This document shows positions 6,962 to 62,400 of a stretch of DNA of 64,000 nt, one piece after another. A model generated the notes under the pieces. It searched no databases. It saw only the letters and a program-made list of their open reading frames with translations, and had not been told where the DNA came from. This DNA comes from Botryllus schlosseri (lineage: Eukaryota). The stretch is taken from positions 35,218,001 to 35,282,000 of the forward strand of contig CM119372.1 of assembly GCA_051294905.1 (NCBI GenBank), in the 5' to 3' direction. The translations under genes were made by a program, and so were the position numbers. Numbering within the stretch: position 1 is the stretch's first letter; each line of letters opens with the position of its first letter.

Positions 6962-7574
6962 GTGGAACTTGCTTATGCTCGATGGTTGCTTTATCAGTCG
7001 CACACTACATTATAATATGCAAGAGGGTACGAATGAAATTCTCGCAATTGAGTGCTTCTGCAGGTATGCATTACCTGCAGTAAGTTTTGTTGTGGGTTAC
7101 ATGTGATTTTCTAATTTTGTTAAGATTCATATGTAAGCATGCGTAATTTTGCCTATTCAAGTCCATCGATCTCAATGTGATTTAATGATTTTTCCTGTGT
7201 GGAAGAAATCAAAAGCAGTAAATGGTAGTTAGATTTACTCAATTTTTTCAGCTATTATCTTCACCTGGATTTGGTCTGGGCTGTGGAACACTGTGTTGGT
7301 GATGAGCGATGGATACGGATCCGACAGATTGCATTCCTTCTGCGGAATCGTTTGGACTTCACCTGACAAATACTTAGTTCAATATTGCTTATATATGATT
7401 TTCTGCTTCGCTGTGCCGCTAGCTGTAATGATCTTTTGCTACAGCTCAATCCTGATACGTGTTCGAAAAGTGGGTTGTGTAAAAGTTAGGTGCTGTAGCC
7501 TATATATAAATACTTAAATGATAATGCTGTTCATTATCTGTTGTCCCACATTCGGAAGAAGCTGAATTACGTCC

Positions 7575-7605
<31 letters not shown>

Positions 7606-10600
7606 CTCTCGGCCGAGTTCAGATTACATTCCGAATTCATATAGTATCTGACACAACTATACGGGGAATTTTTTTAGCTCTGCGGTAACATGGCTGTTGT
7701 CATTTCAATGCGAAAACGTGCCACGGCGTAGTAATATCTGCCCTTATCACTTGAACAATCAATTCATTCATATCATTTAACCACAATTTATTGCTATAAC
7801 CATTCGATTCCTTTGAAATTTCCCGAATTTTAAATAGCAATAACTGAATAAACTGCCTGCAACAGAGGAAATGGTAAATATGAATGGAGTGAATAAGTTG
7901 TATGGCAACTCCGCTTCCATGATGCAGCTTGTCTATCGAATTTGGCTGTCATTATTTAAATCTGTTGAATGATGTTAATGAGACACCGTGGGTTTTATGT
8001 AGTTCTTGTCATGTTCTAAGGAGGCGAAGAAACCTTCTGACTCGAAAACACCGACAACGCTGTTACGGACGATGAAATCACTTATTTCGATCCTGCTAGC
8101 ATTTGTTATTTGCTGGTTCCCGTATGCGACCATCGTCATATTGAAGATAATGATACAGGAAGATATTGTAAGAATTACTGATTAGTTTCAGCGGGTGACA
8201 TAAAATTTCAAATCTGAATATTTAGGACTATTATCCGGAAATGTTCGCTTTCCTGGCAGCAAAAACCTCGTACCTGTCATGCCCGATCATCTACGTCATG
8301 AAGAATCGCAATGTGAGCGTAGTTGTGACTATCGTAATATGCTATGATAAATTTCAATTGCTAATTATTATCAACTGAGATGTTGTGCTGTCAGGTTTAT
8401 ATAAATCGTGTACTCTTCAGTCAATTTATAAATATGTTATGTTCCCATTTACTTAAAGAGATAAGCTAAAGCGTATTACATAGGGATGGTGTGAACCCCT
8501 GAAAGGTTCAGGTTCGTGTGAACGCAAACCTTTTTGAAAGGTTCTGTGTGAACCTTATGACGTCAGGCTAATTCTAACCCTACATTTCAGTAAAGTGATA
8601 TATTTAATATCAATGTACACGAAAACCTCGCGACGACTCAGACCACATTATGCCACAATTCTGAAGTGAGCTACATGCTGACATTTTAGACGACACAAAA
8701 TGTATCAACTGAAGCAATTAAATGCCACAATAATCCGGTAAAATCAATATCTTCGGCCGTCAACAATTTCGACGATGACTTGCAAGGGATTATAAGCTTA
8801 CGCCTTAACTGTCGAAGCCAGAGCGGACAATGTATTCGGCGTCTAACTATTGCGATATCGATATTGGGAAGAGTGTAAAACAGGTTTCCACACTTGCTAC
8901 CGATATTACCCAATAATCAAATTATACAGTAGTCGACACCCCAATCGGACAGATTTGGTTTTAAGATACAATAAACATCAAATCAAGATGGATTCCGTAC
9001 GCCTTCTGCCTTATAGACAACGACGTTTCTTTCAGGGCTGTGGAGTCGGTAAATTTTACCACCGACTCCGGCTCCGACTCCGACTCCACACATTTTCAAT
9101 ATACCGACTCCGACTCCGACTCCGACTCCTGAGTCTTTAAATGTACCGACTCCGACTCCGACTCCGACTCCTGGGTTTTTAAACGTACCGACTCCGACTC
9201 CGACTCCGACTCCCGACTCCGACTCCAGCATTATTACCAATTTACTTCGAAAATTATATGCCACATTGTCGGTTGAATGACTATCATACAACCATTAAAC
9301 ATATGCTATGCAAACATATGATTAACTGTGGCATGCTAAATTGTTTCATTGTGGCACTGCTCGAATTATCCCCTATGTAATTAACATGAAATAAAGATTT
9401 GCTAAATATCCTTCCTTATTCAAGTTTTATTACATGGACTCTCTAATATCCTGAAATGTATGAATCACTCAAATACGGCAGATATCCAATCCTGTATAAT
9501 AAAAATGTAGATAAAAAATCCAAGTGTAGCTCTTGTGTATGACTCGGCAACTAATAAAGAAATTGAACTTACTAATTTTGTCATTGCACACTATCCTGAT
9601 TACAAGCACACACACTCTTACTACTAATAATAGACATTGGTCATAAATGGAATTTAGTTAAGTAGTCAAAGACCATAGCCTATGTCTAGTCTGCATGTAG
9701 CCTACTTAATCAAGTATTCACGGATTGGGACTTGCAGTCTTTCTTAATCATTTGTTCGACCCAAACAGCTAAGCTACAGTACAAATATTTTTAATTTTGT
9801 CAAGTGGGAAGCATCGTTTGGTCATATTTACATCATTTTTACAATTTTACAAAACCAGCCGATGCATTTTCTCTGTCACAGTATCATGGTATAATTCCAA
9901 AAATTGCATCGATTTTGACTGCATCGCGAAAACGCATCTTGCGATTTTCTTCCCCTCTGCAACTGAGTTGTAATTTGCAAGTAATGTCTAATTTTATCTA
10001 TATCAGGGGTGGGCAACTTTTTCGGCTAAAGGGACACCTGAGATTTACGAACCATTGCGCGGGCAACTGGAATGTTGATAACCTTTTTTTTTAGTCGTCG
10101 ATAGGAGCGAACCGAATTAGGTAACATTGCAAACAATACTTATATCAATACGCTCTAAAATTGATAACAATATGTCATGCAACTGTGCAGTGCGTAATCA
10201 GGCCCTGGTCGCGCGAAGCGCGAATTTTTTTGGCAATATAACGACTGAATTAGGCTATAGCTATATCAATAAATACGTCGCTAACATACATTGGGGGTCG
10301 CATCTGTATACCACTGGGCTCATTTGGCAAGGACAGGATTATTCGACATTTAGACATAGCAAAATCGATGGTATCAGTGAACATGCCTCCATCATTTTGT
10401 GCAAATGTTTTGTCGACGATCTCGCTGCGAGTGCACAAGCGAAGCCGTATCTCCTAATTGCGAATATAGTTAGACTCAATTCTGTGAATAATATGTATTT
10501 ATAATTTTCAGAAGGGGGCTCAAATACTGAATGCAAGAAATCTAGTGACAATGAATCATGCGAAGTACCGAGAAAAATTTCAAGTCAAATAAATCTGCTA

Positions 10601-11776
10601 TGAAATATTCTACTTCATGGTCATTGGTCATATACGAAGATCTGGGATAAATGTGGCTGACCCCTGGATACGTCAATGCGTCAGAACTGTTGTTTTAGTC
10701 ATCATCAAATTTCGCGGTCATGCTAATCAAATTTTGGTTGGCCTTGCAATTGTACCTGATGTCATAAATAATTTCGTGAATTACCTCGCAGGCCACACCT
10801 AACCTTCTCGTGTGCCAAATTTGGCCTGCGTGCCACGGGCTGGCCGCACCTGATCTGCATGGTTAATAATAACAGTGATTGGTGGTACATAAAAATTATA
10901 TTGAAAATTCTTTGAAAGCAAATGTTTTCGTGATAGAGAAGTTAGAGTCGGAGTCGGAGTCGGAGTCGAAGTCATAGTCATTCTCACAAACTCCGACTCC
11001 GACTCCAGTCAGTATTTTCCCACCGACTCCGACTCCGACTCCAGCTATTATAGATTTTACGACTCCGACTCCGACTCCGACTCCATCAAGTGAAAATTAC
11101 CCCGACTCCGACTCCGACTCCACCGACTCCGACTCCGACTCCACAGCCCTGGTTTCTTTATATCAATTTCAATTATTTATTGAATAAGCATAATTCGTCG
11201 ACTACCTACATCTACTGTATTTCGTTTTTGATGATGAGTGATTGCGGGTCAAGCTCACAGCAGAGAGTCACTAAATGTTCACAACAGGAAACTGAATATC
11301 ACGAGCAAACCTTTGTAACAAAGTAAGTAAAACTTTTGAGATTGGCAAGGTGCATGCTTGTTTGGTGTTGATTTTTTTTATGCTGCCAGTGCCTTGCATA
11401 GAGTGGTCCGAAGTTGAAATGCAAATAATTTAAACAAAAGATGTTATAATGACGTGGAAAATAGTAATACATGAAAAAAGTTCACAGTGCAAAATCTAAC
11501 GAGGTTCGTTTGTAAACGTGAACCTCCAAATTCTGAGGTTCACACACAGAACGCGACCGTGAATATCACGTTCATACCATCCCTACTATTACAAGTACTG
11601 GGGATTTGACGCAAGATCGCATACATGTAATAAATTACAAACACGAATATATTATCTTTCCATTTCAGATAAGAAAGGAAGTCAAGTCCGTGTTCAACAT
11701 CTGCACAGCCTGTCCCAAATCACAGAGGGCCAAACAGAACGTTGCCAGGACGTTCATGGAAATCAACACCGTTTGA
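6962..11776 (+). CDS. Divergent ciliary-type opsin, paralog A (exons 3-7; exons 1-2 not found, probably upstream of the window)
   Basis: GT-AG exons 6962-7063, 7252-7469, 8024(or 8021)-8167, 8226-8312 and 11669-11776 join in frame. They have the same lengths (102/218/144/87/108 nt) and phases as paralog B. The protein has SVAHYIIICK, YGSDRLHSFCG, FVICWFPYA and LAAKTSYLSCPIIY (Lys296 codon 8262-8264); stop TGA at 11774-11776. Confidence 0.88.
9033..11151 (-). mobile_element. Composite (GACTCC)n hAT-type MITE, full length
   Basis: TIR CAGGGCTGTGGAGTCGG; perfect 8-bp TSD GTTTCTTT (9025-9032, 11152-11159). Confidence 0.92.
10004..10852. mobile_element. Inner CAGGGGTGG-TIR hAT (Charlie-like) MITE nested in the composite
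   Basis: CAGGGGTGGGCAAC...GGCCGCACCTG; flanks ATCTATAT/ATCTGCAT. Related to the free copy at 19017-19715. Confidence 0.75.
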
Positions 11777-14438: not shown

Positions 14439-16272
14439 CTAGTGTGAGATTTTAAGATTATACAAAAATTCTTTCTGTCGACAAAGGACCGGGTTGTTGA
14501 GTTTGATGAAAGTGGATTCCAAAGCTGTTAAATGAAATATGGTTCTACCCTTGGATAAAACTGAAAACATGTCGTCTGAATAGTTTGAGGCGCAAGACGG
14601 GTTGTCGATCAAATGCTGGCCAATTGAAGAACTGCATGCCAACACTTGGCTGTACGATTGGGATTTTGATGCGTGTTTCTGTTTACATTGCTGAGTGATA
14701 TTTTCAGAATCAGGAGACTGCGATGCCGATCTTATCCCCTTAGGAACATGCTGTTTGATACGCTCTAGCAAGCGTTGGGATGTGCGTCCCACATACCGAC
14801 TGTCACAGTGGCATTTGTATTCATATATGACCATACTTTGATGAAAAGCAGGCAGCACATCCTTTCGCGTGTTGGGCAAAATTTGTTTCGTTGTATATAC
14901 AATCCTCGCATTAAAAGTGTTGTAACATGATTCGACGCATGATCTGATTGATTTGGTGAATCTATTGGAAACAGAGCCAAGCCAAGGAAGGTGTATGTAC
15001 ATTGTACACCGGGCATGTGTTAGGGCCGAAAACTGTAGGTTGTCTGAATTTACGCATTTTCTCCGCAATGGCAGAGTCAGTGATGCTATCGGGATATCCA
15101 TTTTTGGACAAAATGGATCTAATCCAATTTAATTCTGCGGACAATTTGTCTTTACAGCAAATCATAAGTGCTCGATGCACAAGGGTAGAGATCAAATTTA
15201 ATTTACGCTTTTTCGGACAAAAGGAGTTCCACCTAACATAATGACCGGTGAATGTTGGCTTCCGATAAACTGATGTGGTGAATTGATGACCCGTTTTTTC
15301 TACCAAAACATCAAGAAACGGTAGGGAACTATTTTGTTCTTTATCTACTGTGAATTTGAGGGATTGATGCATTGAATTTAACGTATCGAAAAAGGCATCA
15401 CACTGTCGCTCACTTTGAAAAACCACAAACGTATCATCAACGTATTGATAATACATAAGAGGTTTATCAGAGTCCGAAAATAACTTATTCTCATGGAACC
15501 CGACAAAAATATTCGCGAGGGTGGGTCCCAATGGTGAACCCATGGCCATGCTGTCAGATTGCTTATACATCATGTCGTTGAAACAGAATTCAACCGACGA
15601 CGTTGATATTTCAAGCAACTCCAAGAATATTTCCCGCGGAATTGAAGGAGGTTCAAGCTCACCATTGTAAAGAGTGTCAGCGCAAATATTGAAAGTTTCA
15701 GTCAATGGCACATGGTAAATAAACTAACAATATCGAATGAGCTCATATATACATCATTGGGATCAAGACCGAAATTACGAATTTTCTCAACGAATGTGAA
15801 TGAGTCACTCAAGCAATTATTTGAATGAACAGACCGGACGGGTTCGATTATTGCGTTGAGCCATTTTGCTAAACTAGGTTGTGCCGAACCAGACATAGAA
15901 AGAATTGGACGCAGTGGCGTATTAGCTTTGTGTATTTTCGGCAGGCCATACATACGCGGTCTTTGTGATCCACACGGTCTGATGAATTCATAGACTTCTT
16001 TAGGGATAACCTTCTGATTCTTCAGAGCTAGTAGACGACGCTGTAGTTACCCTCATTCTTTTTCGTATTATCATTCGAACTCGATGGTCCGAGGAAATGA
16101 ACTTGGAGGAATCTTGAAGAATGCTCTCCATCTTTTGGCAATAGTCGGCTTTGTTGAGAATGACTACTCCGTTACCTTTGTCCGGTTTTGTTATATAAAT
16201 ATTCTTGTTGGATCGAAGTGATTTAATAGCTTGCCAACATTCCTTGGTCATTAAAAAATCACCAACGTCAAT
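14439..16272 (-). pseudogene. Frameshifted Penelope-type reverse transcriptase plus GIY-YIG endonuclease
   Basis: Consecutive ORF pieces contain KPDKGNGVVIL, YGLPKIHK..PLRPI, SFDIVSLFT, AMGSPLGPTLANIFV, YVDD, FLDV, KPTFTG and YEYKCHCDSRYVGRT. Frameshifts lie near 16000-16090, 15710 and 15000. Confidence 0.93.
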
Positions 16273-17756: not shown

Positions 17757-18852
17757 ATCAATTCACCACATCAGTTTATCGGAAGCCAACATTCACCGGT
17801 CATTATGTTAGGTGGAACTCCTTTTGTCCGAAAAAGCGTAAATTAAATTTGATCTCTACCCTTGTGCATCGAGCACTTATGATTTGCTGTAAAGACAAAT
17901 TGTCCGCAGAATTAAATTGGATTAGATCCATTTTGTCCAAAAATGGATATCCCGATAGCATCACTGACTCTGCCATTGCGGAGAAAATGCGCAAATTCAG
18001 ACAACCTACAGTTTTCGGCCCTAACAAATGCCCGGTGTACAATGTACATACACCTTCCTTGGCTTGGCTCTGTTTCCAATAGATTCACCAAATCAATCAG
18101 ATCATCATGCGTCGAATCATGTTACAACACTTTTAATGCGAGGATTGTATATACAACGAAACAAATTTTGCCCAACACGCGAAAAGATGTGCTGCCTGCT
18201 TTTCATCAAAGTATGGTCATTGGTCATATATGAATACAAATGCCACTGTGACAGTCGGTACGTGGGACGCACATCCCAACGCTTGCTAGAGCGTATCAAA
18301 CAGCATGTTCCTAAGAGGATAAGATCGGCATCGCAGTCTCCTGATTCTGAAAATATCACTCAGCAATGTAAACAGAAACACGCATCAAAATCCCAATCGT
18401 ACAGCCGAGTGTTGGCATGCAGTTCTTCAATTGGCCAGCATTTGATCGACAACCCGTCTTGCGCCTCAAACTATTCAGACGACATGTTTTCAGTTTTATC
18501 CAAGGGTAGAACCATATTTCATTTAACAGCTTTGGAATCCACTTTCATCAAACTCAACAACCCGGTCCTTTGTCGACAGAAAGAATTTTTGTATAATCTT
18601 AAAATCTCACACTAGTTGTTGTTGCTTAGCTATTCGTCCGTATTTCTGTACAATTTTTATTCTGTGTTGCTGCACTGTCCCATTGTATTTGTATGTTATT
18701 CCTCACGGGCAGTACTTCTTGAAGTTGCTTGTTGCTATATACGCCGCATTGTTGCTATGATTGAAAATCCATTCATGTTATTTATAAATTTTCATTATTG
18801 CGTCACAATTCGCCATTTGGTTTTGAATCCATCTCTGTTCTGTATCCTTTAT

Positions 18853-27200: not shown

Positions 27201-29634
27201 TTAAACTATGCAGTATGCACATTGCACATTTACAAGTCACAGTGCGCGATAATCCGGGAATACTAGAGTATCAAGCAGACAGTAAGAATGAGTTAACGAA
27301 ACAGATGACTACAAATTGGAAATCGCGCATCAAATCAGTAATTTGTCTCCAACAGAAAATACCATGGGGTTTTGGGCTACTCTTCTGCCATCCCCTGTTT
27401 ACGCTCGAAAATCCTTACTGGAGTGAATGACGATGATGCGCAGTAATGAATTCCAATTAGCATGCATAATTGCATACTCAATAACACTGTCCAATTTCGC
27501 GGCCCGATTAAAGAACTATCACGAAAGAACGAGTATTTGCTCAACCGATTCATAGCAACGATAAGATGGAATTTCTCGCTCGTGCTCGTCATATCGACTT
27601 GTGCAACGAAATGACGTTTTTATCCTCTCTCCCATTTCGCGTAATACAGGGTGATCATTATTTTCGAACCGTATACAATTGGCCAACAAGGTTGTGCTGA
27701 TGATGATATTGCGAGTATGCCGAATACCCACAATATTCACAGGCATATTTCGCATAACGAGGTTCGGCACTCATGTGTGAAAATTGAACTTTGAACATAT
27801 GACTGCTCTGCTGTTTAATCTCCAGGAACATGGTTAGTCGGAAAAGGTAGCGCCAAAGAGGAAAAGATTCTTAATTTCGCGAAGGCCTGCTATTGAATTA
27901 TGTGAACTCAGCAGATATGGTTGTTGCATATATAATAGCACCTTATGAAATACGTCGGAGCCGGAGTTGCCCCTCAAATAACTGGTTACAGCTCCGGCTC
28001 CGGCTCCGGTCTCTGGCTCCGGCTCCAAAGCCATGGCCATGACTCCTTGTTTCTGTTCCAAACTTACATCTCATTCATGTAAAAATATCAATCATCATGT
28101 TGGCTCTTTGGCAAGCCAAACACTACGGGGATTACAAATTTCATCATTTAGACTTTACCTTGAGTCCATAAGCGCGAAGTTTCAGCCTAATGCTGGCGGA
28201 ACGTTTGCGGTGCCCAGCGTCTATTTTGATCTCTCAACGTCATGCCAAAGTACTCCTTGTAAGTGCACTTGGTGATATTTCACCTATTGAATCGCCTCAT
28301 GTTCTACGTGTTCTCGTAACATACGTAGCAAAACAAATATCTAGGTAATTACGACATTTTCTTTCTAGTTATCATTCAATTTTTAAGATACTTATTAAAA
28401 CAGCCATGAATTGAAAATTGCTGAAAATGATAGCAAGGAACAGTATCTAATATTAAAAAGCGTAGGAAAGCGTGTTACATTTGAGCCCATTAATCATCGG
28501 TGATGAGATAAGTGTCATTTGACTCTTTCTGTAGCTTAAATGAGGGGAGGTCGTGTTAATTGACGTAATCTGTCGTAAAAAGAGTCTCTAAATGATAATT
28601 TTCAGGAATAAACTAACTATTGCTTTATCAGTGCACCACAATGCACAAGTTAGTACTACACGGAAGAGGATATAAACTAATCTAAGCCCATATTCACCTC
28701 CTCAAGCGCGAGTTAACCTATATTACTCACAAACATACTACCTTTCATGGCATATGTGGGAAGACGCAATATCTGAAAAATAAAGCCAATTCGGCAAAAG
28801 TAATGCCATTTTTGGACACAGCGCCCCTGATACACCCCTAATCGACTTCACATATAATTATTTAAAATATATATATATATATATTTGTTGCCCTGAGTAA
28901 TCAATCACACCGTACCGCGTAGGTTAATGAAAGCTTAGCGGCTCGATATTGCCCATTAGCCGAACGAAGATTTGATTTATACGAAGTGCAGCGTTGGTAT
29001 AGCAATGACCATGTGGATCTATATCGAGTCGATTATGCGCTGATTATAGGTTACTGATATACCGTATACGGGGATGAGTCTCGTGACGCGACGCAGACGT
29101 GAGATAGATTAGGACTTGCTCAGGCTTTTAAGTTGGATGGCGTTGGGAAGTCTTACGAGCAAGCGCGCGAATGTAACTTTCAGCGATGGGACTGCTTCGA
29201 ATAATACCCGTTTCACGGAAATTATAGGTGAACAGATCACCACGTTAGTATGGTGTTCAGGAGGGTTTAGAAAAAGTCATTTCAAGGCAAATTTTATGCA
29301 GCCGGTAGCGTATGAGCAATGATGTGTAGTTGACGAGGCAATTTAATGCATTGTCTATTTCTATTAATAGATCTTGATTTCGGAGTATCAAAGTGAAGGT
29401 TCGAAACGTATTTATTTCTGGACGATGGTGGAGTAACATTTCCATTTTCGTTGAGAGCAGCTGGAACGTCCTGAAAATATGCACAGGAACAATGTATAGT
29501 TCAAATTGACCACTGAGTCACGCCACCGGTTGCAAAATTAGGTCAGAGCACAATTATGAGCGCAGCTGTTTTCTATTCGGTGATGTATCGTCTTGGCTGT
29601 TCATCGCGACTCATAACTGGTTTTTACGGTGCAG

Positions 29635-32600
29635 ATGAATTACACTACAAATCCTTTTTCTTTTGATCCTACTGATGCTGTCATCGATGGTGCTTCGTCC
29701 TGGAAAAGACACGTGCTGATAACCTACTTGCTATTCGTTTCGGTGCCAGGAATCGTTCTGAATGGTACCATCGTTTTCGTTCATATGAGCAAATACGAGG
29801 TGGGTACGACAATCTATTGTCGTTTACTCGAGTAATATTTCAAGAGTGACCGTCAGTGCTCGGATTCACCCGGTTCGAATCCACAGTACTGTCTCACTAG
29901 ATATTACGAGATAAGCGAACCGGGTCTATGCGATAAAACCGACACACAAAAATATTGAATTCAACCACTGGTTGTCGTTACTCGACGGCACAATTTGCGT
30001 TGGCATATTTTGGAAAGAGATATGTTTTCGTTATCTCTGAAAATGGGATTTTTCGGCCTTTCAAGACGTCCAATTTCCAATGATATCCTTGGCATGGGAC
30101 GTCAATGAAGTACGGAATAGAATTGGAGGGAAATATTTTATCACATCAACACAATAACAGCTGAATAACTATATTAATTTGCACAAATTTTTAACTCGGT
30201 CTCAAAGGCGTTTGAAAGTGATATTCTTTCTTAGCAGGGTTATTTGGTCTCTAGGAGTAAATATTTTGTCTTTAGTGGGGTTAAAAATATGAGAATTACA
30301 GAGTTGGTAATTCGTAGTCATTCCGTCAAGGTACAATAAAATGCAAAAGAAAATCTTATCAGCTGGCCCTGTAGATCTCCAGTAGATCTCCTAATTACAT
30401 TGTTGTTTATACATGTACTGCAAATCACATTTAGAGGTACTCACACAATGGAGAATGGACATCGAACGATACCCGAATGATGTTTGACTATTCATATTTA
30501 TGATCAGGTGAAGCATTTGCCTCACCTACGTAAAGATGTTTTTTTTTATATATTTTCAGCCAACCAATCGGAACAAAAAACCTATGACGTTGCTTATCAT
30601 CAATCTCTGCTTTGCCAACTTACTGAGTGCCATGGTGAGCGTCATCATGATTGTGCCCATTAACACAGGAAGTCTCGATACGACTGATCTCACCTGTGAA
30701 ATTTTCGTCCTCGTTCAAGGCGTCCTAGGTAAGTTGGCCGAATGCTGAAGTCATAAAGCAACTTCGTTTTCTGAGTAACCAATTATTCCCATGTCGATAA
30801 GCATTCTATATTGGCAAATGTGCAAATAATAACGTGGTAATCTAAAATCAATGTTGAAAGCATTCACTGTTAGCAACATGCTTGGAGGGCTTTGTAAAAG
30901 ATCCAGAGGTATTTAGTAGTGAATTATCATTTACCCCGACATTTTTAAAGGCTGAAGTGCATTTGTTTTCTGCTTGCCCCACCCGACTGGTGACAGTTTC
31001 GGACTAGTTAAAATTCTACTGTAGCAGTTTCAAAAAGTCAGATTACCAGCCTATTTTACTTCACAGTTTCTCAACTGAACGCGGAAAACGTTATATTATA
31101 TATCACTTTATGAGTGACGTTTTAATAAAAGTCGGTCGACATAGCTCTCTTGTCACCGTAGCGGAAATGATTTTCGAGAATAGCAACTATTTCCGGCGCA
31201 ATGTAGTCGTACTGCGATGGTGCCAAGAATGCAAAGAATTTCCACCAAATATGTTATTATGACGCGAAAAATTGTAATGTATATCTAAGGTTTCCAGTGC
31301 AGAACCTACCAAGGTTCGTTTGTGAACGTGAGCCTCTAAATGTCTGAGGTTGACGCACAGAACGCGAACGTGAACGTCACGTTCACACCATCCCTAATAA
31401 ATATCTCTGGTATTCCTCTCTTACCAGAAATATCTTTGACTTCTACGCAGAAAGCAACGAAGTACTAATCTTTCGAGATAAAGCGTTCTTATGTAGATTC
31501 GTCCATATATGTAGCCTATGTTTAAAATTTTTGACTATGGCACTCAGCAGCAATGGCGTCGTGCAACAAACCTGGGCGTTGTGAGTCTATTTTTCTACAT
31601 TGATCCATTACAGTGGCCTGTCCGTTAGCAATACGTATTCACGACATAGGAGCTGTCGAGTAGGAATGCTATGTCTACGGGCACATTGTTCCGTCGTGCT
31701 ATATTCTTCAAATAGAACCCCTGTTAGTTTTGACTTTTCTACTTCTACACGGGGAGGTTAGTAACGAAGTACATCTTCCTTTTTCGATATAGAACCTACG
31801 TGAGTCGGTTTTTCCTATGCTTGCACTACATTAATGGCTATATTTTTATAGTACTTCAACTTTTACTTGAACTTTTTCTAGGAATAACTACGTACTTTTG
31901 ACATTTAAGCTACACGAAATAGACATTAGTCTCGTGATGAGTTAGCACTACTGAAATAGCTTAAAATCGTCAATATAGAACTTTGTAAAATTAACACTGT
32001 ACCGTTGTAACTGACTAAATATCTCTTCTAATATTGCACCTGTTTATTCATCCGGAGTAATCACAAAATAAATGTTTTGATTTTGAAACGTCTTACGACT
32101 ACTCATCGATGTAGTCTCCAAACATTAGATTGTTTACTTCCACGTGACGTAGTTTTGACATGTCTTGGAAATGGACACTGCTAGTTACAAATCAGTTTTT
32201 TTCGACAACGCTAGTTTCATCTTAGTTTTGAGTCGGATTTCGTCTCTTGCTCTCACCGTGATGGGAAATTGCATTTCAAGGTATTTGAAGAGGACATGTT
32301 AAAGGTTCACTGCGCTCTAAAAATGATGTGGTCTCAAATTGAAGCGCAGATAGGAAAATTTATTTTGGACGCAGCCATCTTCTGCAGAAAGCCACCGTAA
32401 TGGAGCTGCAATTAAATGTTTAAATTATGCTATTTCGCGAACATTTTCACGGTGATGATTCCGAGCTGAAGCACCAAGAACCGCATGCACTTTCAAGCTA
32501 GCTTTGTTGCATCTCTCATTGATTTCTGCTCAGAGAATTATCTCAAAGCTAAGATTTTATTGAATTTCGGAGCCGAGATCAAGAGGGAAGTTATCCCAGC

Positions 32601-35600
32601 TTGAAAACCGTTTTCAAACATACGCCACTCTGTTTCGATCAAATTTACTTTGTGAGCACTTATCGGTAAAATGATCCGAATAAACATAAAAATTTATTGA
32701 CTGATGGTGACCTCAAGCAGCTACAACATACTGCATCCTCCGCGATTTCCCCTCGATTTAAGGAGCTTTTTAAGGCTCAAAGCGAACGCCAAGGGGAACA
32801 ATAAATTGATTTGTGTGATTTTGTTGGAACATGCTTTCGTGCTAAAAATCTCCATTCCTAATACTTTAGTATTCTCAATCGGCTCCATACACACTCTGAA
32901 GTTTGAAATTTGGCCAGGTAACGCAAACGTTTGGGAACCACTGGTTTCGAACCTTCCAAGGTTAGTTCGCGAGAGAATATTGAGATTTGCTTACCGAAAA
33001 CAAACGTGTACACGATCCCTAATTGGCATGCTCTGATTGTTTACTAATCGAAATAATTCGAATGACTGAATCACCTTGTCCACCAAAATCGTATATTTCA
33101 GGTGGAACTTGCTTATTCTCAATGGTTACATTGTCTGTCGCACACTACATCATTATATGCAAGAACATGCAGATTGAATTTTCACAAATGTGTGCTTTTG
33201 CAGGTATGCATTCACAGCATGTTAAATGTTCGGTTACCTGGGATAGTCTTATTTGGAGACATCTGAATTCCCTAAAATTGTATGTCAAATATACTTTGTG
33301 TCAACTCCCATCCATGCTGCATGCAGGTTTTGCAATAATCGTGATTGCCTTACCCTAAACTCCTTCTTTGTGGGGACAAGCTGAAATGCGGCACAGTTCA
33401 TTTCGTAAATCAACAATAAGTGGGATATGTTTTAGCAAGTTTTCTAACTTATTTTCTTTTTCGCTCTTCGTATCACTGCATTTCTTGGTGTCAATATGGC
33501 AATCCTTATGTCCGGAAAAATGATAGTAAACGAGAATAAAAACATGAAACATGGGCATAGTTGACAGAAATAAGTTCAACCTTTCTGGAAATTACGATAC
33601 ATCGACATACGGCAATATACTACAGTGTAAAACCGGGGAATCTGTTTAGCCGCTTTAGTGTAGGAGTGTGAGGCATACAGGTGCGGAATTATTGGGCAAC
33701 GAAAATACTTCGTCGACCTATTACGCGCCAGTGGACAGTGCACGGGTAACACCCGATCGATATCGTCGAGCACAAAGCATTCGCGTGATGGATGTGTTTC
33801 GACGAACGTGGCTGATGAACGCGGCTGATGAACGCGGCTGAGCACAGCACGGCGCTAGATGATTTGGCGAACATGCTACTCTGCAGAGGCCGGTGTCCAA
33901 AATTAGGCGGCTATAACACCAGATAAGGCCGACGAATGTTAGCCGAAACATTAGATATCGAAATGTCAGACATCGATATAGCCGGCAAGCGTCCTTGCTA
34001 ACTGAGACCCGCGGTAAAAATATGGCTCGAAAAGGAAATATGCCATCGGTTGCGAAAAAGGAAATTTTGATCGCGTTGATTCCAAGAAAAGAGTATTTCT
34101 CTTAGTCCGGTTTGGTGCTGACGAGTTTTGACAATATATTTTGAGTAGGAATACGATGTAACGACACGTTTGGACACAGTAATAAATACCAATTTACCCG
34201 CCCGAAGCCACTCCACGAGAACCTCGTCAATGGTCTTAACCCGGCGACATGAAAATGACTTGAACTGTGTAATTACGAGGTCTGAATGGTCGAAGACACC
34301 GTATCCATCAGTCCTACCATACTGATCCCACATATGCAAAATATGCCAGAGTCAAGGTTATTGACCAAACTCATTACAAAAATTTCGCATTGTATGATTT
34401 AAAGTTAAAGGCACACCAACACTCATTTTAAGGAGATAGGCTACACCTCCAATTTGAAAATCACTCATGCATCCATAAATTTGAACTTAATAGAAAACTC
34501 TTTCTGCAGTTTGAACTCGATATGCTTTGGTAATTCTTTTAACGTTGGTAAGCGTATGGAAACCACCGACGATTTTTCTACTTCTATTGTGTTTCCGTGA
34601 TTTTTTAAACAAATTTTGACGAACATTGCCGTGACAACTTTTTATTCGCGATGCTCCTTAGGAATCAAATCATTCTAAAGAAAAAGATGGAATCAACAAC
34701 GGGTAGCATGTGATTTTTTTTCATTTATTTCAAGAAATTGGAAACACTGTTCATAATTACTTTGACGTACCCAAATGGATGCTCCCTTATTGATACGCAC
34801 ACAAAAATCTTTTCATGTTGTTCATTACCCTAAAATATGTCAACCTACAAATTATCAAGTTAATCAGATGAATTTTTCATCTTAAAGAATAATTTAAGGT
34901 ATGACAATTTAAAGTTTCGAGAAAAAGCAATTTTCATTCCGTAACATGTAAAAGTCACAGTATTACCTTGCAAACATCGATAACGACACAGTTTTAACAC
35001 TAAAGCCCCCGCACCCACCCTAGAAGGATGTACCCATTCTGCCTAGGATCTGCATGTACATGTCAGTCATGAACTTACCTAGATCTTGGATACACTTGGC
35101 TAATGATACAAGATTCGGACAGATTGCCAACATTATGTCCCAGGACAAATGGCAGCAGATGTAAGCCTCCTGCATTTCGATGATAGTAGAAATATTCATT
35201 CAATAGATGATCCCGATATAGGCAAAGGTTTCAAAATGCAGTAAATTATCATCTACTTACAAATTTTCAAAATTTGGATCGATAGCAATTCAACCACTTC
35301 AATTTATGCCACAGGCCGTAGTCAATATTTTTCGAATAGATTGGCGGCGGCAATAGTCGCATATTCAAAACGCATTAGGGTCAAAGCTTAATGCTTATGC
35401 ACTTTAGGTCGCGGCAAGATCTATTTTCCCCGTAAGGCTGTAGTGACTGTCGTCCTAAAGTGCATGAGCCCGAGTCGATTAGTTTATCCGTCGACAGCAA
35501 ACAAATTTCGTCAAATTTGTCACAGGTAGGCGTTTCCAATCCATAAAAGCTTCGGGTAAATGAAATATGACATCTAATAGAACAAATATAAAAAATGGAT

Positions 35601-37861
35601 TTTTGAAAGTTTTCCAATTCAAGGGATAGCCTAACCCCTAAAGCCGCACTCATTAAGGTGCAATAATGTTACACAATGAGTAAGATATTGTTAAACTGAC
35701 CACAACAATTTAATTGCTTTTCATCAGTAAATTTTACTGAACAGCTCCTTAATCACACCATGCATGATATTATAGGCTACGGATTACCGTTCACTTATTC
35801 GAGCCGACTCGTATCGCCCACCGACTTATTCATGATCGATCACCAATGTTGGGTAGTCTATACCTAAAGCGAGTTGCGAGGTGAACTCGGAATTGATCCA
35901 ATCAATAGTGGAGAATTATGATTGCGAGCTACGTGATACCATGATTCACTTCGCTACGAAAAGGGTATGTGTGTGTGTGTGTGTGTGTGTTTGCGAATAC
36001 TGTGCAAAATGGGTGGTGATAAAATTCCATGTAGAAATATGAAGATCACAATTACGAGAACCGAGACTATCTATCGTTTTTATGGGGAAGATATGGTAAA
36101 GTGCTGCGATGGCGCTACTCAATCATTTGTATATATAGCCTTTCGGCATGGCCGTCGCAGACAAAACTAGTGACATGAATAAGGGTAATAGTGACCAAAT
36201 TATTTCCAGCTATCATTTTTACCTGGATTTGGTCTGGGGTGTGGAACACTGTGTTGGTGATCAGCGACGGATATGGCCCCGATAAATTGCATTCGTTTTG
36301 CGGCATCGTATGGAATTCACCTGACAAATACTACGTTCAATATTGCCTCTACTTGACCTGCTGCTTTGCAGCGCCGTTAACTATATTGGTCTTCTGCTAC
36401 AGCGCGATCCTATTACGTGTTCGAAAAGTGAGTTATACATAGCAGATTTTATGTTTTTAGTCCCTTTATAAATATATACTAATAATGTTCATTATCCGCT
36501 GCCTCACACGTGGAAGAAAACGACTATTAATTTCTGCCAAAACGAATGTATATTATATTCGACAAAGCTAAGTAGAAATTTTGTTTTCGGCCCTAATGTG
36601 ATTTTCGTCATTTCTATGCACAATCCACGCACCGTGTAGCTGAGGGGTAGGCTATGACTTATTTTTAGGGAATCTCGCGAAGTGATGGCTAAACGTTCGT
36701 GAATCGATTCTTCTGTTTCGGGAACGATGATGATGATGGCTATCCTGAACTCGAAATAGCAATATCTGAATAAACCGCGTGTCAGTTAGGAAATTGAAAC
36801 TGAATTAATAGCGGTCATCTAGCATCTCCACTGTTAGGCCACTTTGCTGCTATTCAATTTCATACAACATTGAAAGCAGTTAGATGCTTTGATTTTCACG
36901 TTTAACCCTCGCGCGGGCTATGTTGCAGTGTCGAGGCGAGGACAATTAGGGCTTTCAATCAACTCATTTAATGTATTAAGCAGGCGAAGAGACCTTCCGA
37001 CTCGAAAACACCGACAGCACTGTTGCGGACGATGAAATCAGTTTTTGCGATCATGCTGGCATTTGTTATTTGCTGGTTTCCGTACGCTGTCATCGCTATA
37101 TTAGAGATAATGATACGGCAAGACAAAGTGCGACTCATTGGTTACTTCTGACAAATAGCATACAATTTAAAATCGAAATATTTAGAACTCATACCCGGAT
37201 ATGTTCGCTTTCTTGGCGGCCAAAACCTCGTACCTTTCATGCCCGATGATCTACGTCATGCAGAATCGCAATGTAAGCCTGATACCATTGCACTTAGCGG
37301 CTTTGAGATGAACCTCGATTGCTAAGGATTTGAATGAGAAGTTTATATACATCGTGTAGCCCACGTATTCAATTTATAGATAAGTTTATGTTCGTATATA
37401 TCCCGTCTCTCAACAAAATACTAAAAGGAAAATTTCAATAATAGACTCCCTAAAGCAGTGGTGGTTAAAATCGTGATTTGTAGTACTTGAATCGAGTTAA
37501 AAGTAGTGCTGTCAATTTCGAGTAAATCTCAAGTAAAAGTGGCTATTCTTAGGACATACCAAATTCCAAGTAGGTATATCAAGCGCAAAGTACTTGGTGA
37601 GAGGGGCCTCTCGGCAAATAGTGGACGTCTACAGCAGACAGTGCTTGAGATTAAACGCAACGGGAGAATTATCGTACATAGGACAACATATACATTTTAC
37701 ATATGTGGGCAATTTTAAGTTAACGAATCGAATATATTCTCATTTCCTTTCAGATGAGAAAGGAAGTAATGGCAGTATTAAATCGATACATAGCTTGTTT
37801 CACACCAAAGCAGGAAAAGAAGGCATGTGCAGTGACGGTCATAGAAAACACCGCTTTTTGA
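29635..37861 (+). CDS. Divergent ciliary-type opsin, paralog B (7 coding exons, 330 aa, 7TM class A GPCR)
   Basis: Exons 29635-29799, 30560-30728, 33102-33203, 36210-36427, 36984-37127, 37186-37272 and 37754-37861 sum to 993 nt, open frame. Features: N-terminal NYT sequon, TM1 Asn, Cys110/Cys187 equivalents, CWFPY, Lys296 (37222-37224). Introns fall at rhodopsin-equivalent codons 121 (phase 1), 232 and 312 (phase 0). Confidence 0.92.
31290..31396. mobile_element. Right end of the TAGGGATGGT family element in opsin B intron 2
   Basis: Aligns with 11485-11585 and ends GTTCACACCATCCCTA. Confidence 0.7.
35045..35262 (+). pseudogene. piggyBac-type transposase relic in opsin B intron 3
   Basis: Manual translation ICMYMSVMNLPRSWIHLANDTRFGQIANIMSQDKWQQM*/LLHFDD..DPDIGKGFKM resembles the piggyBac LP..YW..MSR.R..LHF.D..D.L.K.RP segment. 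It has stops and a frameshift. Confidence 0.6.
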
Positions 37862-38517
37862 GAGGATAGCTGCTAAGTTGACCTCCACATTTGAACACAT
37901 TTGACAACGGCTTGTGTGGTTCCTCTGGTGTATACTGTTTATAATGAGAAAACTCTTGTTATCTATTTCATGATGATCTTATATTGCTGAAAACTAATTA
38001 CGCTATGATGTTGATCATTATCAATATATTTTTCGAATATACTTTCTTATACGTTGCTTGTGGTATCAAATACCGGTCGACAGCTTGAAACTTAAATATA
38101 ACTGATAGTGACTGTTACGCCGTTCTTAATACTACTTCATCTAAACTTATATTACATCAATATAAAATACTTGCCGCCTTACTATATTGGCACTTGTTTG
38201 TGCTTCCCCATATCCAATTGACTGCTTCATACAAAATAAGCTGAGATCAGCGATGTCCAAACGACGGATCACAACAACCAAAACCGTTTTTATTTGCTCC
38301 TAGCAAATTATGTTTGTTTGTTTGATTTAAGAAAGTCTTTCTCTGTTTCATGACATGAAAAAGATCATTAAACTGCAACTATATTAGTGGTTGCCAAGCG
38401 TTTTATACCTTCGGCCCGATTTCCAATTTGAAAATGTGACGTATAGCCACCTCCTGATTTTATTTGATTGACTATTAAAAATGGGAGCACGGTCTCCAGA
38501 AATTACTGCCTATTTCG

Positions 38518-57620: not shown

Positions 57621-59492
57621 TGCACTACACGTTCACCTTCGCAACTGCACGATTAACACTACAACAGGGCTAGGCATAGCCTGTGTATCTATAAAACAAA
57701 ACAGTTATTCATTTGATAATAACGCAAACGCGTCAGAAGCATTACCGAAATTTTATAAGCTGTTCACAATTCAGTGTTCATCCACAATAACCAATGTGTC
57801 AACAGTACAGGTGGAATCAGTTGTGCCGATTTGTAAAACAGTATAGAAATGTGAATCCGTATGCAGCGATCTGCTGATAAATTCGCAGATTCTGCTTTTA
57901 GTCTAACTTCAGGACGTACAATGTCGATAGCATCAGGTCCATGATACCTTTGAATACGTGTCAGAAAATGTGTTTAACGTGTTACTGTCTGTACCATGTT
58001 ACTTGCCTTCTTCACGTTTTTCTTTTTGTGAAGACCCGCACCTCAACATAACTCATTGTTTTCCTAACCGTTTAAATAACTCGGTTGCTTTCTTTAGCAC
58101 AACATCTCATAATTTGATTAATCGTGCCTATGTACAAAATTTCGCCGTTTAGATTGTATTGAACAACGTTCATAATGAGTTGTGACCGAGGTTATAAATG
58201 AGCTGTACCTATCTGCGCAATGTACACATACTTTAGAGCACGAATTTACCTAGCACATGCACCGACTAAGAGGTTTGACCGAGTACATTATTTAAAGTAA
58301 TACAGTTACTGTAGTTCACAATCGTTATCGGAATGAAGTCATTTCAGCTCTTATTCAATGGTGTGTTCAGCAATCCAAATATTTCAAAAATGCGTGTGCC
58401 CCGAGTAAAACTGTAACTTACCAGTACCATGGTGAAACAATTTTAATTACATCGCTGCAGTAATTCGACTTTTACGACGCGTTATATCGCAACGGCCCGT
58501 GGCTATAGTTTACCCATTCCAGTACTATACGCTGTCGGTTTGCGAAGTCGATAGCGTATTGTGTCACTGCGCTGCGATTGTCGGATTTTTAGTCAACAAT
58601 GAGTGAGGAAAGTTCGTCTGCGCTTCAAATAATAATTTATTCTCTGCGTTGCCTACTTAACATTCCTCGTTAGTTGAGGGGGTTCGAAAACAGGGCGACA
58701 ATGGCATTCAATTAATACTAATTGTTAAAAATTCTGTTCAGTTTATGATGAGTCGTACTATGATAAAGATATGACATGGTCTATCTTTCCCCACCTGTAC
58801 ATCATCTCTCCTCTCGCTCTATATTTCGGACCAATGAATGAATAAATTCTATGATTTTGGGTTTAAAAATCTTTAAAGTCAAGTCAATCATGAACATCGA
58901 TAGAAAATTCACATAATTATTGGTGGTTTAATCATTGAAGGTTTCACAGCTGTATTTTACTCACCCTGACGACAGGTGCGATGAGACTTCACATGGTGAC
59001 TATATTGGATATTAGAGCTACTCGACTGACGTATCGCTGTCTTAACGTGGACCTTTTTAGGGTTAAATAAGGACCTTATCTGTCTCAGGATTTACTTACT
59101 TTACTAGCAAAACAAAATCCATTATTGTTGATTGCAGCTGCAGAATTATTTTCCAACTGCTGCCCGTGAAAACCTTCACTGCATTACAATCAAATATATA
59201 AAACTCACAAGAATATGTCAATTCTCCAACTACAACTGTCACCAATAAAACAAGAAATGGATTTTGCGCTTGCAAATACCGTTTAATCTGATTTTGTATA
59301 TGGTTGTATCGTAATACATTTGTATGACAGTAAATTATGTCGTGAGAGGTACCACGGTCGCAATACAATTTTTAACTTCGGTCACCGGAACTTTGCTAAA
59401 AGTTGTTGAGTGACCATATAGTACCATAAGCGCCTAAGTATTCTTCTGACCGGCTTTTAACAGTAATATGTTTCATGAACTCTTTTCCATAG

Positions 59493-62400
59493 TTAGAGTT
59501 TTCAATATGGCGTCTCACAGTAAAATAAAAGGACGTCAAACTCAGAATCCTGATGTGATAGGGAAAAACAACGTCTATGGCATAACAGAAAAGCAATATT
59601 CAACTCCTCTATTGATCAATAAGGTCAAAATACGAGATTCCCTCTCCGATCAGCTAATCGAAGGCACCCGACTTTTGCAACTTATTTCTGCTGGCCAAAA
59701 CAAGAGACGTATGGGCACAAGTTATCACGTATGTGTCACGGGAAAGGATGGGTCCGGACGGAGCACAGTCCTGGCAGCGTTACTCGCAGATATTAAAGTA
59801 AAACGATCCCAGACATTGTTCAGTGGTATTGCAGCAGTTATTTCGATTAGTTGTGGCAATACACGAATAAAAAGGCAAAGAGGAATAGTTGATTCCATAT
59901 TTGGTGATATTGGAAACTCAGGAATACAGTACTTCAAATCAAAGGGCACTTTTCGGATTGACATACTATCTGTAGGTAAAATGAAGAAATGGATGGACGA
60001 GAATTCCCCAAAGATTTGCTTTGTGTTCGATGATCTTGATCGGATCCTCGTGCAATCGACGGCCAATAGAAAGAGCGTTTCCATTGACACGCTGACTCAA
60101 ATCATCTCGGGAAAAAAATATCCGGGGTGCATTATCGTAACTTCTTGTCATCAAGATAATATAGATTTGATATTGCAGATAGAAAATGTTATCGTTACAA
60201 GACGTTTTTGTACGCTTGGCTTATCATCAGCCACAGTTCAATCCATCGCAAATGAAGCACTCAATGAAGAAGTCTGTAGAACAGCTTTTCTCAAAATGAC
60301 ACCCTACACCACAGCGTTATGCGAAAATCCTATGCTTTTGTATTACACCATTGAGGGACTTGCAAATAATGCAAAAAGCTCGCCACGCGGAATGTCAGGC
60401 ATATTTATGAACCTTTTAGATACGGTGAGAAAAACGAACTATATTAGCGATTTCCAAAAATTCATGAAGCTATGTTATGACACTAGAAAGACTGGCAAGA
60501 CTTCATTCACCAAAGCTGACCTTGTGAAAGTTGGAATGACTTCTTCTGATACAAGGGCATTACAACTTGATTCTCTTTTCATAACTAAAAAAATCAAGTT
60601 TGGGGACAACGTCACGCTGACTTTTTGTCATCCTATTATTCTTGATGGATTCGTTGCACTATACCTCTACAGTAAAAGTAAATGGGAGACAACGGATGAA
60701 TATGAAACAGTTATCGACGATATCAACTTCATTGGAGCCTGGAAAATGTTGAGTGGATTTGTTTCGGAAGAGCGTAATAAAGCACTATTATGTGATCTGA
60801 TCTCTACGGGTAAATTTCTTGCGATTCGAGTCGTGTGGAGGATTCCTGTATTTCACCGTTTATTTTCAGACCCGGCGAAAAAGCAACAACTTAGTATCGA
60901 ATACGACTTCAAGAGAAAATATATATTAAAACTCAGTGGAATACTACTAAGACGTTGGCTCGAAAATATCAGTGGTATCGACGATCAGCTTCATGGCCTG
61001 CATTTGCTGTCAGAGTCTGACATTACTGGATATAATGATCTAACTGAAGGATTAGAAACCTTCCTGATGAAATCAGACAAAAACATTAAATTTAATCGGA
61101 GTGACGCGAGCGCTCTCGCTGTTTACATTTGTTTTCCTGATAAGATGAAGCAACTGAACCTTGACAATTGTAACCTTTCGTTAGATTTCCTGAATACCTT
61201 GAATGAAGACCTGGGTAAATTAAAGGGAAGTGTAAAGGTAACACAGTTTTAATTTACGCCTTAGGCTTGTTTAGTATGTGATAAGCGCAGTAACATTATT
61301 ATTGCTTAGAATTGTCTACATTCCAATAGCAGTTTCCCAATGAATTTGACAATTTATACCGACTTGCTTTTATGGGATCAAGGCAACAACATAAACCCGG
61401 GGTGGGCAGATCTTTGAACTCGCGGGCCGCATTCAACATTTGAATCCATTCGCGGTCCGCTCTATTAAGGATTATTGGGAATATAAACCAAAATGCAACA
61501 TTGGTATTTCATTATAAAGTGAGGACATGGAGATTATATCGTCGTATCACAAAACGCAACCAGGACGCTAACAAACCTAATGGATAGTTTGATGGCATAG
61601 AAGGTTACGACGGTTGATGAGAGATTTTTAAATATGAAATTCATACTAAATACAGATTAATAACCATTAATCGGATGTAAATAGAGCGGAGTGCGACAAT
61701 TTTTTTTTAGTTGGGCTCAGCTTCGCACCTCCATTCAGATGCTTTCACGTCCCCAAAGCGGATGCACTTCTCAGTTTGAGAACCACTGCATTATAATTCT
61801 CATGGTGAAATGTACTGAGAAAAGTTTAATCAAGTCCCTGCATTAGTTCGATTATTATTGCGCATTTTATCAATTTTTTTTTTGATAAGTTTCTTTAGAC
61901 TCTCACGGGCCGTACAGAATGATGCTGCGGGCCGCATGCGGCCCGCGGGCTTTAGTTTGCCCACCCCTGAGATATACATTAAGTATTAACAGTGTCGTTT
62001 GTATCACTTACAATATGAAATATTGAATAAAAATATTGAATCCAGAATGACTCCGCTAGCTAATGCATAATATTTTCATTTGCCGTTGTCGAACGTCAAT
62101 GCAATATTTCTCTAGAATATTTCTCTAGAATGGTTAGGTTGAATAAATAAATGCTGTTCACCACATCCGTCCATTAGCGTAGAACTGCAATGAATTGGTG
62201 AGGCTTTATTTCCGAAGGTACAAGATTCACCATGAGAGTATTATTAATATTATTAATAATAATAATAATATTTGCACAACACGGTGGCCCTTATCGCTTT
62301 TTCAGGCTATCGTGTGGCCATCGTGGTCTCTGCTGCCGACTTGTAGCACGGCTCACTTTATGTCTGGGCTTTTCAATACACTACGGTAGTAGTGAGATCG

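Follow-up and report, generated by a model that had tools for sequence, protein, structure and literature searches.

What can an opsin do that has kept its retinal-binding lysine and replaced the core of its G-protein activation machinery? This question is raised by gene B of the ascidian Botryllus schlosseri. Gene B is located at positions 29635–37861 on the plus strand of the window, a stretch of 64,000 nucleotides corresponding to C2:35218001–35282000 of the 495-Mb assembly; window coordinates are used for gene B and for paralog A, a second copy in the window. Gene B is an opsin-type gene of the class A seven-transmembrane proteins. It belongs to a tandem family of nine copies. Judging from the retained residues, retinal is most likely bound by the family, but canonical G-protein activation would not follow.

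The gene model and its residues

The spliced model of gene B has seven exons, six introns that all have GT-AG sites and a coding sequence of 993 nt for a protein of 330 amino acids (aa). Full-length phmmer comparison with tunicate opsins gave E = 2e-33 for gene B and E = 5e-49 for the family member p6. Exon 4 of gene B had human middle- and long-wavelength cone opsins as top matches in the PDB (E = 1e-6), and HMMER alignments to PDB entries placed K296 at the transmembrane helix 7 (TM7) lysine of rhodopsin. Pfam 7tm_1 matched the single exons 2, 4 and 5, all under the cut-off of 30.5 bits.

Residue numbers follow the standard landmarks of bovine rhodopsin, anchored on alignments with tunicate opsins and Xenopus pinopsin and on HMMER alignments to PDB opsins. 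Alignment and codon check established N83, F113, A134-H135-Y136, D181, F186, F292, K296 and C302-P-M-I-Y, with F292 read gap-free ahead of K296. The C110–C187 pair is kept. TM4 has WNT-VL, whereas canonical tunicate opsins have WNT-PP. Residue 247 (6.30), which is acidic (D or E) in the canonical opsins of tunicates and in Xenopus pinopsin, is a leucine in gene B. Methionine replaces F313. Signalling class A G-protein-coupled receptors (GPCRs) share E/D-R-Y, an acidic residue 6.30, D2.50 and NPxxY; the family deviates from this set, in gene B with AHY, L247, N83 and CPMIY. A first-pass annotation of this DNA had predicted a spliced opsin of 330 aa at this place, with K296 kept, AHY, CPxxY, D83N, E113F, E181D, S186F, A292F and the TM4 Pro-Pro absent. 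The seven-exon model has the same length, and codons and alignment agree with every one of these residues. The annotation was also right that the substitutions in exons 3–7 are common to paralog A, where AHY, D181, F186, F292, K296, CPIIY and the TM4 change are present.

The rarity of these states was estimated with 135 stored opsins of 300–480 aa, mostly VA opsin, parapinopsin, pinopsin and tunicate ciliary opsins (c-opsins), a biased set dominated by vertebrate non-visual c-opsins. R3.50 was present in all 135 sequences. E or D at 3.49 and D2.50 occurred in 133 sequences each, N7.49 and K296 in 132 each. Asp instead of the usual Glu at position 181 was found in 4 of the 135. D181 occupies the usual counterion site and is the putative counterion in the family, in which residue 113 is F or Y.

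A tandem family with fixed motifs

Searches of the whole assembly with B-type and C-type exon 4 queries detected the same nine copies, all on the plus strand within about 450 kb (C2:35.107–35.560 Mb). Their chromosomal order is p3, p7, A, B, p9, p5, p2, p6 and p8. Eight of the nine were modelled and fall into three types: B-type (B, p2, p3), A-type (p5, A) and C-type (p6, p7, p8). Four copies have full seven-exon open models, namely the B-type genes with 330 aa each and p5 with 328 aa. Three are partial open models, one is truncated and one has a stop. Of the C-type genes, p6 and p7 were modelled for exons 1–6 and p8 for exons 2–6; no exon 7 was identified in this type, and no exon 1 in p8. 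In p7, the site that corresponds to the exon 5 acceptor of p6 reads AA.

The types share 42%–46% identical amino acids overall. AH[YF] at positions 134–136, K296, D181, Y223, CWxPY and [C/S]-P-x-I-Y are common to the eight modelled copies, and every copy with the relevant exons has N83 and L247. The family also retains G121, F212, F261, W265, Y268 and C187-G188-I189. Residue 313 is M or I in place of F. Residue 302 is serine (AGC or AGT) in the C-type and cysteine (TGC) in the A- and B-types; these codons are single-step neighbours of each other and of the asparagine codon AAC. Sites in the binding pocket vary between the types: F or Y at 113, F, Y, V or D at 186 and F or S at 292.

Two copies are defective. 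The DNA homology of A to p5 (89.6%) begins only downstream of p5 exon 2, and exons 1 and 2 of A were undetectable across 16 kb upstream; A is thus a 5′-truncated copy. In copy p9 (C2:35436207), exon 4 is interrupted by an in-frame TGA at the Trp that follows C187-x-I-x; this copy also has S for Y178 and C-P-V-V-C in TM7, with K296 still present. Its exons 1–3 were not found in 8 kb upstream. Together with the TGA, this identifies p9 as a pseudogene fragment. Both A-type copies have a TM6-like peptide of 16 residues just upstream of exon 3, in p5 within intron 2. It shares 43.8% identity over 16 residues with part of gene B exon 5 and may be what is left of a duplicated exon.

Selection and growth of the array

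Pairwise ratios of nonsynonymous to synonymous substitutions (dN/dS, Nei-Gojobori) among intact copies ranged from 0.06 to 0.31. In the B-type, the values were 0.30 for B–p2 (dS 0.20), 0.31 for B–p3 (dS 0.22) and 0.28 for p2–p3 (dS 0.05); B–p5 had 0.28 at dS 0.64. In the C-type, p6–p7 had 0.21 (dS 0.05), p6–p8 0.06 (dS 2.6) and p7–p8 0.08 (dS 2.1), the last two at saturated dS. Synonymous sites were also saturated between the C-type and the A- and B-types. The pair p5–A reached 0.53 (dS 0.18), as expected if the truncated A is relaxed.

The codons of the unusual residues differ synonymously between copies: GCA and GCG for A134, CAC and CAT for H135, GAT and GAC for D181. Residues kept through such changes indicate a constrained state that is older than the split into three types. 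The conservation of the changed motifs across old paralogs thus points to a new constrained state and not to decay. Equal dS values, 0.05 for p2–p3 and p6–p7 and about 0.2 for A–p5 and B–p2, suggest that the array grew by copying blocks of at least two genes and not single genes. This pattern may reflect segmental duplication, in two rounds, of blocks with several genes.

Distribution and expression

An exhaustive HMMER search of 1.84 billion representative proteins with an exon 4 profile gave 68 matches at E ≤ 1e-3, none with 50 bits or more, and no orthologue. The best match (49.9 bits) was a 99-aa fragment near-identical to a paralogue on C16, which is not a member of the AH[YF] family. Exon 4 scores within the family are 70–175 bits. 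Named matches included a Clavelina ‘vertebrate ancient opsin-like’ protein, peropsins, opsin-3, parietopsin, a box-jellyfish c-like opsin and lophotrochozoan opsins. A word-indexed search with exon 4 among longer proteins had nothing at E ≤ 1e-3. A metagenome scan with the exon 4 profile had 121 pattern matches, none of which was confirmed. The searched collection includes proteins of Ciona, Clavelina and Styela clava; hence, the family is absent from these proteomes or unannotated in them. In the literature on tunicate and ascidian opsins, no description of AHY/CPxxY opsins was found.

Reads of four bulk RNA runs with the species label were mapped to window positions 29000–38500. About 6%–13% of each run was sampled, in total 5.6 billion letters, with tissues and stages unspecified. 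No exon coverage of gene B was present in the sampled parts. One partly fitting read was located at exons 5/6, and all others at a short repeat in intron 2, which held most reads of the region, and at a second intronic spot. The reads on the intronic repeat fit only partly and continue into unrelated sequence; they therefore derive from copies elsewhere. Gene B is not abundantly expressed in the sampled RNA, and the RNA result shows only that.

Probable origin within ciliary opsins

Among stored proteins, the top matches of spliced gene B were a Clavelina ‘pinopsin-like’ protein (110 bits) and a Ciona opsin (104 bits); p6 matched a Ciona opsin with 161 bits. The same genome encodes a canonical c-opsin (C14:11521001–11524300) with ERY, NPLIY and K296, which shares 62% identity with a Styela clava opsin and 47%–49% with Ciona and Clavelina opsins. 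All six introns of the AH[YF] genes match this canonical gene in position and phase. Intron 1 lies two residues ahead of R-T-P in loop 1 (phase 0), intron 2 within codon 121 (phase 1) and intron 3 three residues ahead of F-T-W in TM4 (phase 1). Introns 4, 5 and 6 are all phase 0 and located at 232/233, at 282/283 in extracellular loop 3 and at 312/313. Exon lengths are 163/105/224/147/90 in the canonical gene and 163/102/218/150/90 in p6. From the exon boundaries of rhodopsin, we take the introns at 121, 232/233 and 312/313 to be the three that are general in c-opsins. Three introns are the same in position and phase over all c-opsin groups, unlike in xenopsins, r-opsins and others (Vöcking et al., PMC5648526). 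Three further introns of tunicate genes (loop 1, loop 2/TM4 and extracellular loop 3) are also present in the AH[YF] genes. The matching introns place the origin of the family in the tunicate c-opsin lineage.

A maximum-likelihood protein tree had 33 rows, without r-opsins, Go-opsins, RGR, retinochrome and non-opsin outgroups. The AH[YF] family formed a single clade (100/100) with a very long stem (1.38) and joined Opn3 and the clade of tunicate and vertebrate opsins at a polytomy. Approximately unbiased (AU) tests rejected none of three placements, namely beside tunicate c-opsins (p = 0.084), beside tunicate plus vertebrate opsins (p = 0.39) or beside peropsins (p = 0.18). As nothing was rejected, the tree is powerless on the placement of the family. 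Descent from the tunicate c-opsin lineage is well supported by gene structure, and not by the tree.

The first-pass annotation had suggested an undescribed, c-opsin-derived lineage and a phylogeny of the spliced protein as its check. The part on novelty holds, with no close relative among the proteins searched and no description found. The derivation from c-opsins is backed by the six introns and by best matches to tunicate and vertebrate c-opsins; the phylogeny recovered the family as one clade and could not separate a c-opsin, a deep and a peropsin-side placement. Taken together, the family with these motifs is very probably real, under selection and derived from c-opsins.

Proposed function and alternatives

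Each of the conserved charged or polar switches of canonical G-protein activation is replaced, and the new residues are fixed in the family: N for D2.50, A for E3.49, H for R3.50, L for E6.30, S or C for N7.49 and M or I for F313. The residues needed to hold retinal are retained, with K296, an acidic residue 181, C110–C187, G121, F212, F261, W265 and Y268. Substitutions of R135 abolish transducin activation. The rhodopsin mutant R135L is hyperphosphorylated and constitutively bound to arrestin (PMC3959821). The pairs D83/N302, R135/Y223, K231/E247 and Y306/F313 and the NPxxY motif are conserved in signalling opsins and most deviant in RGR and retinochrome; within NPxxY, the asparagine is altered in retinochromes and the proline in RGR (PMC8628405, PMC9368030).

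The tandem family of nine probably goes back to a duplication in the ciliary-type (vertebrate-type) opsin lineage of tunicates, followed by strong divergence. The proteins would bind retinal as an E181-type, bistable-like pigment with D181 as counterion; Glu181 is the commonest opsin counterion (PMC6513861). Gt, Gi and Go would not be activated in the classical way. The proteins may handle retinal in a light-dependent manner, as photoisomerases or buffers of retinal that converge on RGR and retinochrome, or they may be non-canonical signallers. We assign a probability of roughly 0.4 to this non-canonical, retinal-handling mechanism. The first-pass annotation had proposed non-signalling or arrestin-biased retinal proteins that might serve as a photoisomerase, retinoid store or UV pigment. 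The C-terminal tail of the family is short, with few Ser/Thr, without a Ser/Thr cluster and without the V-x-P-A (VxPx-type) end of canonical opsins; therefore, an arrestin-biased function is not favoured.

Several points weigh against a retinal-handling mechanism. The function is inferred from sequence alone, the protein tree does not confirm the c-opsin placement and gene B had no exon coverage in the sampled RNA. The photoisomerases known so far have genes of single or low copy number, and nine tandem copies with dN/dS of about 0.3 are more reminiscent of sensory receptors in diversification. The conservation of K296 alone is weak evidence, as the types are still 42%–46% identical overall. 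A derived NPxxY is no proof of lost signalling, because NAxxY is compatible with signalling by the MT2 melatonin receptor and with activity of bovine rhodopsin (PMC9368030).

The proteins could still be G-protein-coupled photoreceptors with alternative microswitches (His 3.50, Ser/Cys 7.49 and Asn 2.50), and the copies spectrally or kinetically diversified light sensors. This would agree with the retention of K296, D181, Y223, CWxP, P7.50 and Y7.53, with new residues that are fixed and show no drift and with pocket sites 113, 186 and 292 that differ by type, as tuning would predict. GPCRs with non-standard NPxxY are able to signal (PMC9368030). Such coupling is rather unlikely, however, given an arginine at 3.50 that none of the comparison opsins lacks and whose loss disrupts rhodopsin (PMC3959821). 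Five separate switch positions are altered jointly, among them the two ionic-lock partners (H135 and L247), and joint changes fit the pattern of non-signalling opsins (PMC8628405). Another explanation gives up light altogether. The genes would encode constitutive scaffolds, or receptors that derive from opsins and sense a chemical or physical cue, with a lysine that is structural or serves a non-retinal ligand and an expansion by ligand diversification. The nine tandem copies, the moderate dN/dS of 0.3, the variable extracellular and pocket sites and the loss of the VxPx-type end of canonical tunicate and vertebrate opsins fit this explanation, and zero reads in bulk RNA samples are compatible with rare specialised cells. 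It is unlikely, since K296, the acidic residue 181, C187-G188-I189, W265 and Y268 are kept in types with saturated dS, whereas opsins that abandon retinal, such as gluopsins and nemopsins, usually lose K296 (PMC9368030).

The absence of exon coverage is also what unexpressed or decaying duplicates would show, with a low dN/dS left over from recent duplication and gene conversion. Among the nine copies, A (without exons 1 and 2) and p9 (with its TGA and no exons 1–3 found) are plainly defective, p7 has the AA acceptor and p5–A the dN/dS of 0.53. Decay of the family is nevertheless quite improbable. Four copies have full seven-exon open frames with all splice sites intact, the key residues are maintained through synonymous changes, and the values of 0.06–0.08 for p6 and p7 against p8 at dS above 2 are inexplicable by recent duplication or gene conversion.

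Comparison with known systems

The closest likeness is to tunicate ciliary-type opsins, that is, Ci-opsin1 of Ciona, the opsins of Styela clava and Clavelina and the canonical gene on C14. They share seven exons and, compared with the C14 gene, six introns at the same place and phase, as well as K296, C110–C187, Y223, CWxPY, P303 and Y306, and they are the best full-length matches. Identity of the family with the C14 opsin is only 24%–30%. The family differs by AH[YF] for ERY, [CS]PxxY for NPxxY, N for D83, L for the acidic residue 247 and F or Y for E113. It also differs by a TM4 without Pro-Pro, a shorter N-terminus and a tail without the V-x-P-A end.

Atypical chemokine receptors and C5aR2 are class A receptors with altered DRY and without G-protein signalling; they have peptide ligands and act via arrestin or scavenging. 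Common to them and the AH[YF] family is the loss of R3.50 or its DRY context in otherwise intact, conserved receptors. The families are unrelated, and the AH[YF] tails are short with few Ser/Thr.

RGR and retinochrome, photoisomerase-type opsins of the peropsin/RGR group, resemble the family in keeping K296 and in deviating residues for G-protein activation; retinochromes have VPxxY or YPxxY (PMC9368030, PMC8628405). The family motif is [CS]PxxY, whereas these groups have NAxxY or [VY]PxxY (PMC9368030). The family is further distinguished by its tandem array of nine copies. Its opsin group and gene structure also appear to be different from theirs. The introns of the family are c-opsin-like, although the AU test did not reject attachment on the peropsin side (p = 0.18). 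A preprint on TARA Oceans data reports nine tunicate opsin sequences that are highly divergent, unstable in placement and classed as peropsins or retinochromes by reciprocal BLAST (bioRxiv 10.1101/2024.11.07.622103). Their comparison with the AH[YF] family is by description only.

It is doubtful, but conceivable, that ‘atypical’ opsins arose independently in chordates. The family would then be a c-opsin-derived clade inside the lineage leading to vertebrate visual pigments and convergent with RGR and retinochrome. Its microswitches would have been re-fixed (N2.50, A-H-Y/F, L6.30 and S/C-P-x-x-Y), with the retinal site kept and a radiation to nine genes. These proteins could be light-driven isomerases or buffers, or light signallers without G proteins and with a titratable His 3.50. 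A conserved, expanded offshoot of c-opsins in which the chromophore site is kept and the activation core rewritten would be a natural experiment on the microswitches that are dispensable under selection. If the proteins are photoisomerases or retinal buffers, they would represent a second, independent chordate route to light-driven recycling of the chromophore.

For Ciona, three opsins and three opsin-like genes are listed (PMC2396169). The opsin-like repertoire of B. schlosseri far exceeds that set, with canonical genes, the nine of the AH[YF] family and a minimum of seven other divergent exon 4 copies. The divergent opsin-like copies are located outside the cluster at C16:14.39–14.47 Mb, C2:37.13–37.28 Mb, C8:19.05 Mb and C6:13.59 and 25.44 Mb. 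They share 29%–38% identity with the AH[YF] cluster and with canonical opsins. The C16 copy (locus L028) has S-R-Y, D83 and E181. Two canonical opsin genes are arranged in tandem at C14:11.52–11.55 Mb.

Features of the window

TABLE 1. Exons, motifs and other features in the window (window coordinates unless a locus is named).
Feature	Position	Strand	Description
Gene B exon 1	29635–29799	+	Start codon; N-terminal N-x-T sequon 29638–29646; TM1; ends in phase 0, intracellular loop 1
Gene B exon 2	30560–30728	+	TM2; N83 30617–30619, C110 30695–30697, F113 30704–30706; ends in phase 1 within codon 121
Gene B exon 3	33102–33203	+	TM3; A134-H135-Y136 33140–33148 replacing E/D-R-Y; ends in phase 1, three residues ahead of TM4 F-T-W
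Gene B exon 4	36210–36427	+	TM4 WNT-VL without Pro-Pro; extracellular loop 2 with D181 36281–36283 and C187 36299–36301; TM5 with Y223; ends in phase 0 at 232/233
Gene B exon 5	36984–37127	+	Intracellular loop 3 with L247 (no acidic residue); TM6 C-W-F-P-Y 37068–37085
Gene B exon 6	37186–37272	+	TM7; K296 37222–37224, C-P-M-I-Y 37240–37254; ends in phase 0 at 312/313
Gene B exon 7	37754–37861	+	Helix 8 with M for F313; short tail without VxPx-type end; stop codon
Gene B intron 2 repeat	31295–31400		Short repeat with most RNA reads
Paralog A exons 3–7	6962–7063, 7252–7469, 8021–8167, 8226–8312, 11669–11776	+	Open, GT-AG sites
Paralog A motifs	7000–7008; within 8256–8270; 8280–8294	+	AHY; K296; CPIIY
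TM6-like peptide	6697–6744; 951–998 of locus L005 (p5 intron 2)	+ (window copy)	16 residues, upstream of exon 3
Open frame between A and B	14962–15723	−	Putative retroelement debris
Open frame between A and B	18025–18615	+	Putative retroelement debris
NACHT open frame	59450–61252	+	600 aa; probable NLR-type exon

The two open frames between paralog A and gene B match a reverse-transcriptase fragment (RVT_1, E = 1e-6) and, weakly, GIY-YIG (E = 7e-4). They look like the debris of a retroelement, possibly a Penelope-like one. Downstream of gene B, a long open frame matches NACHT (E = 9e-6), slightly below the Pfam cut-off, and is probably an exon of an NLR-type gene.

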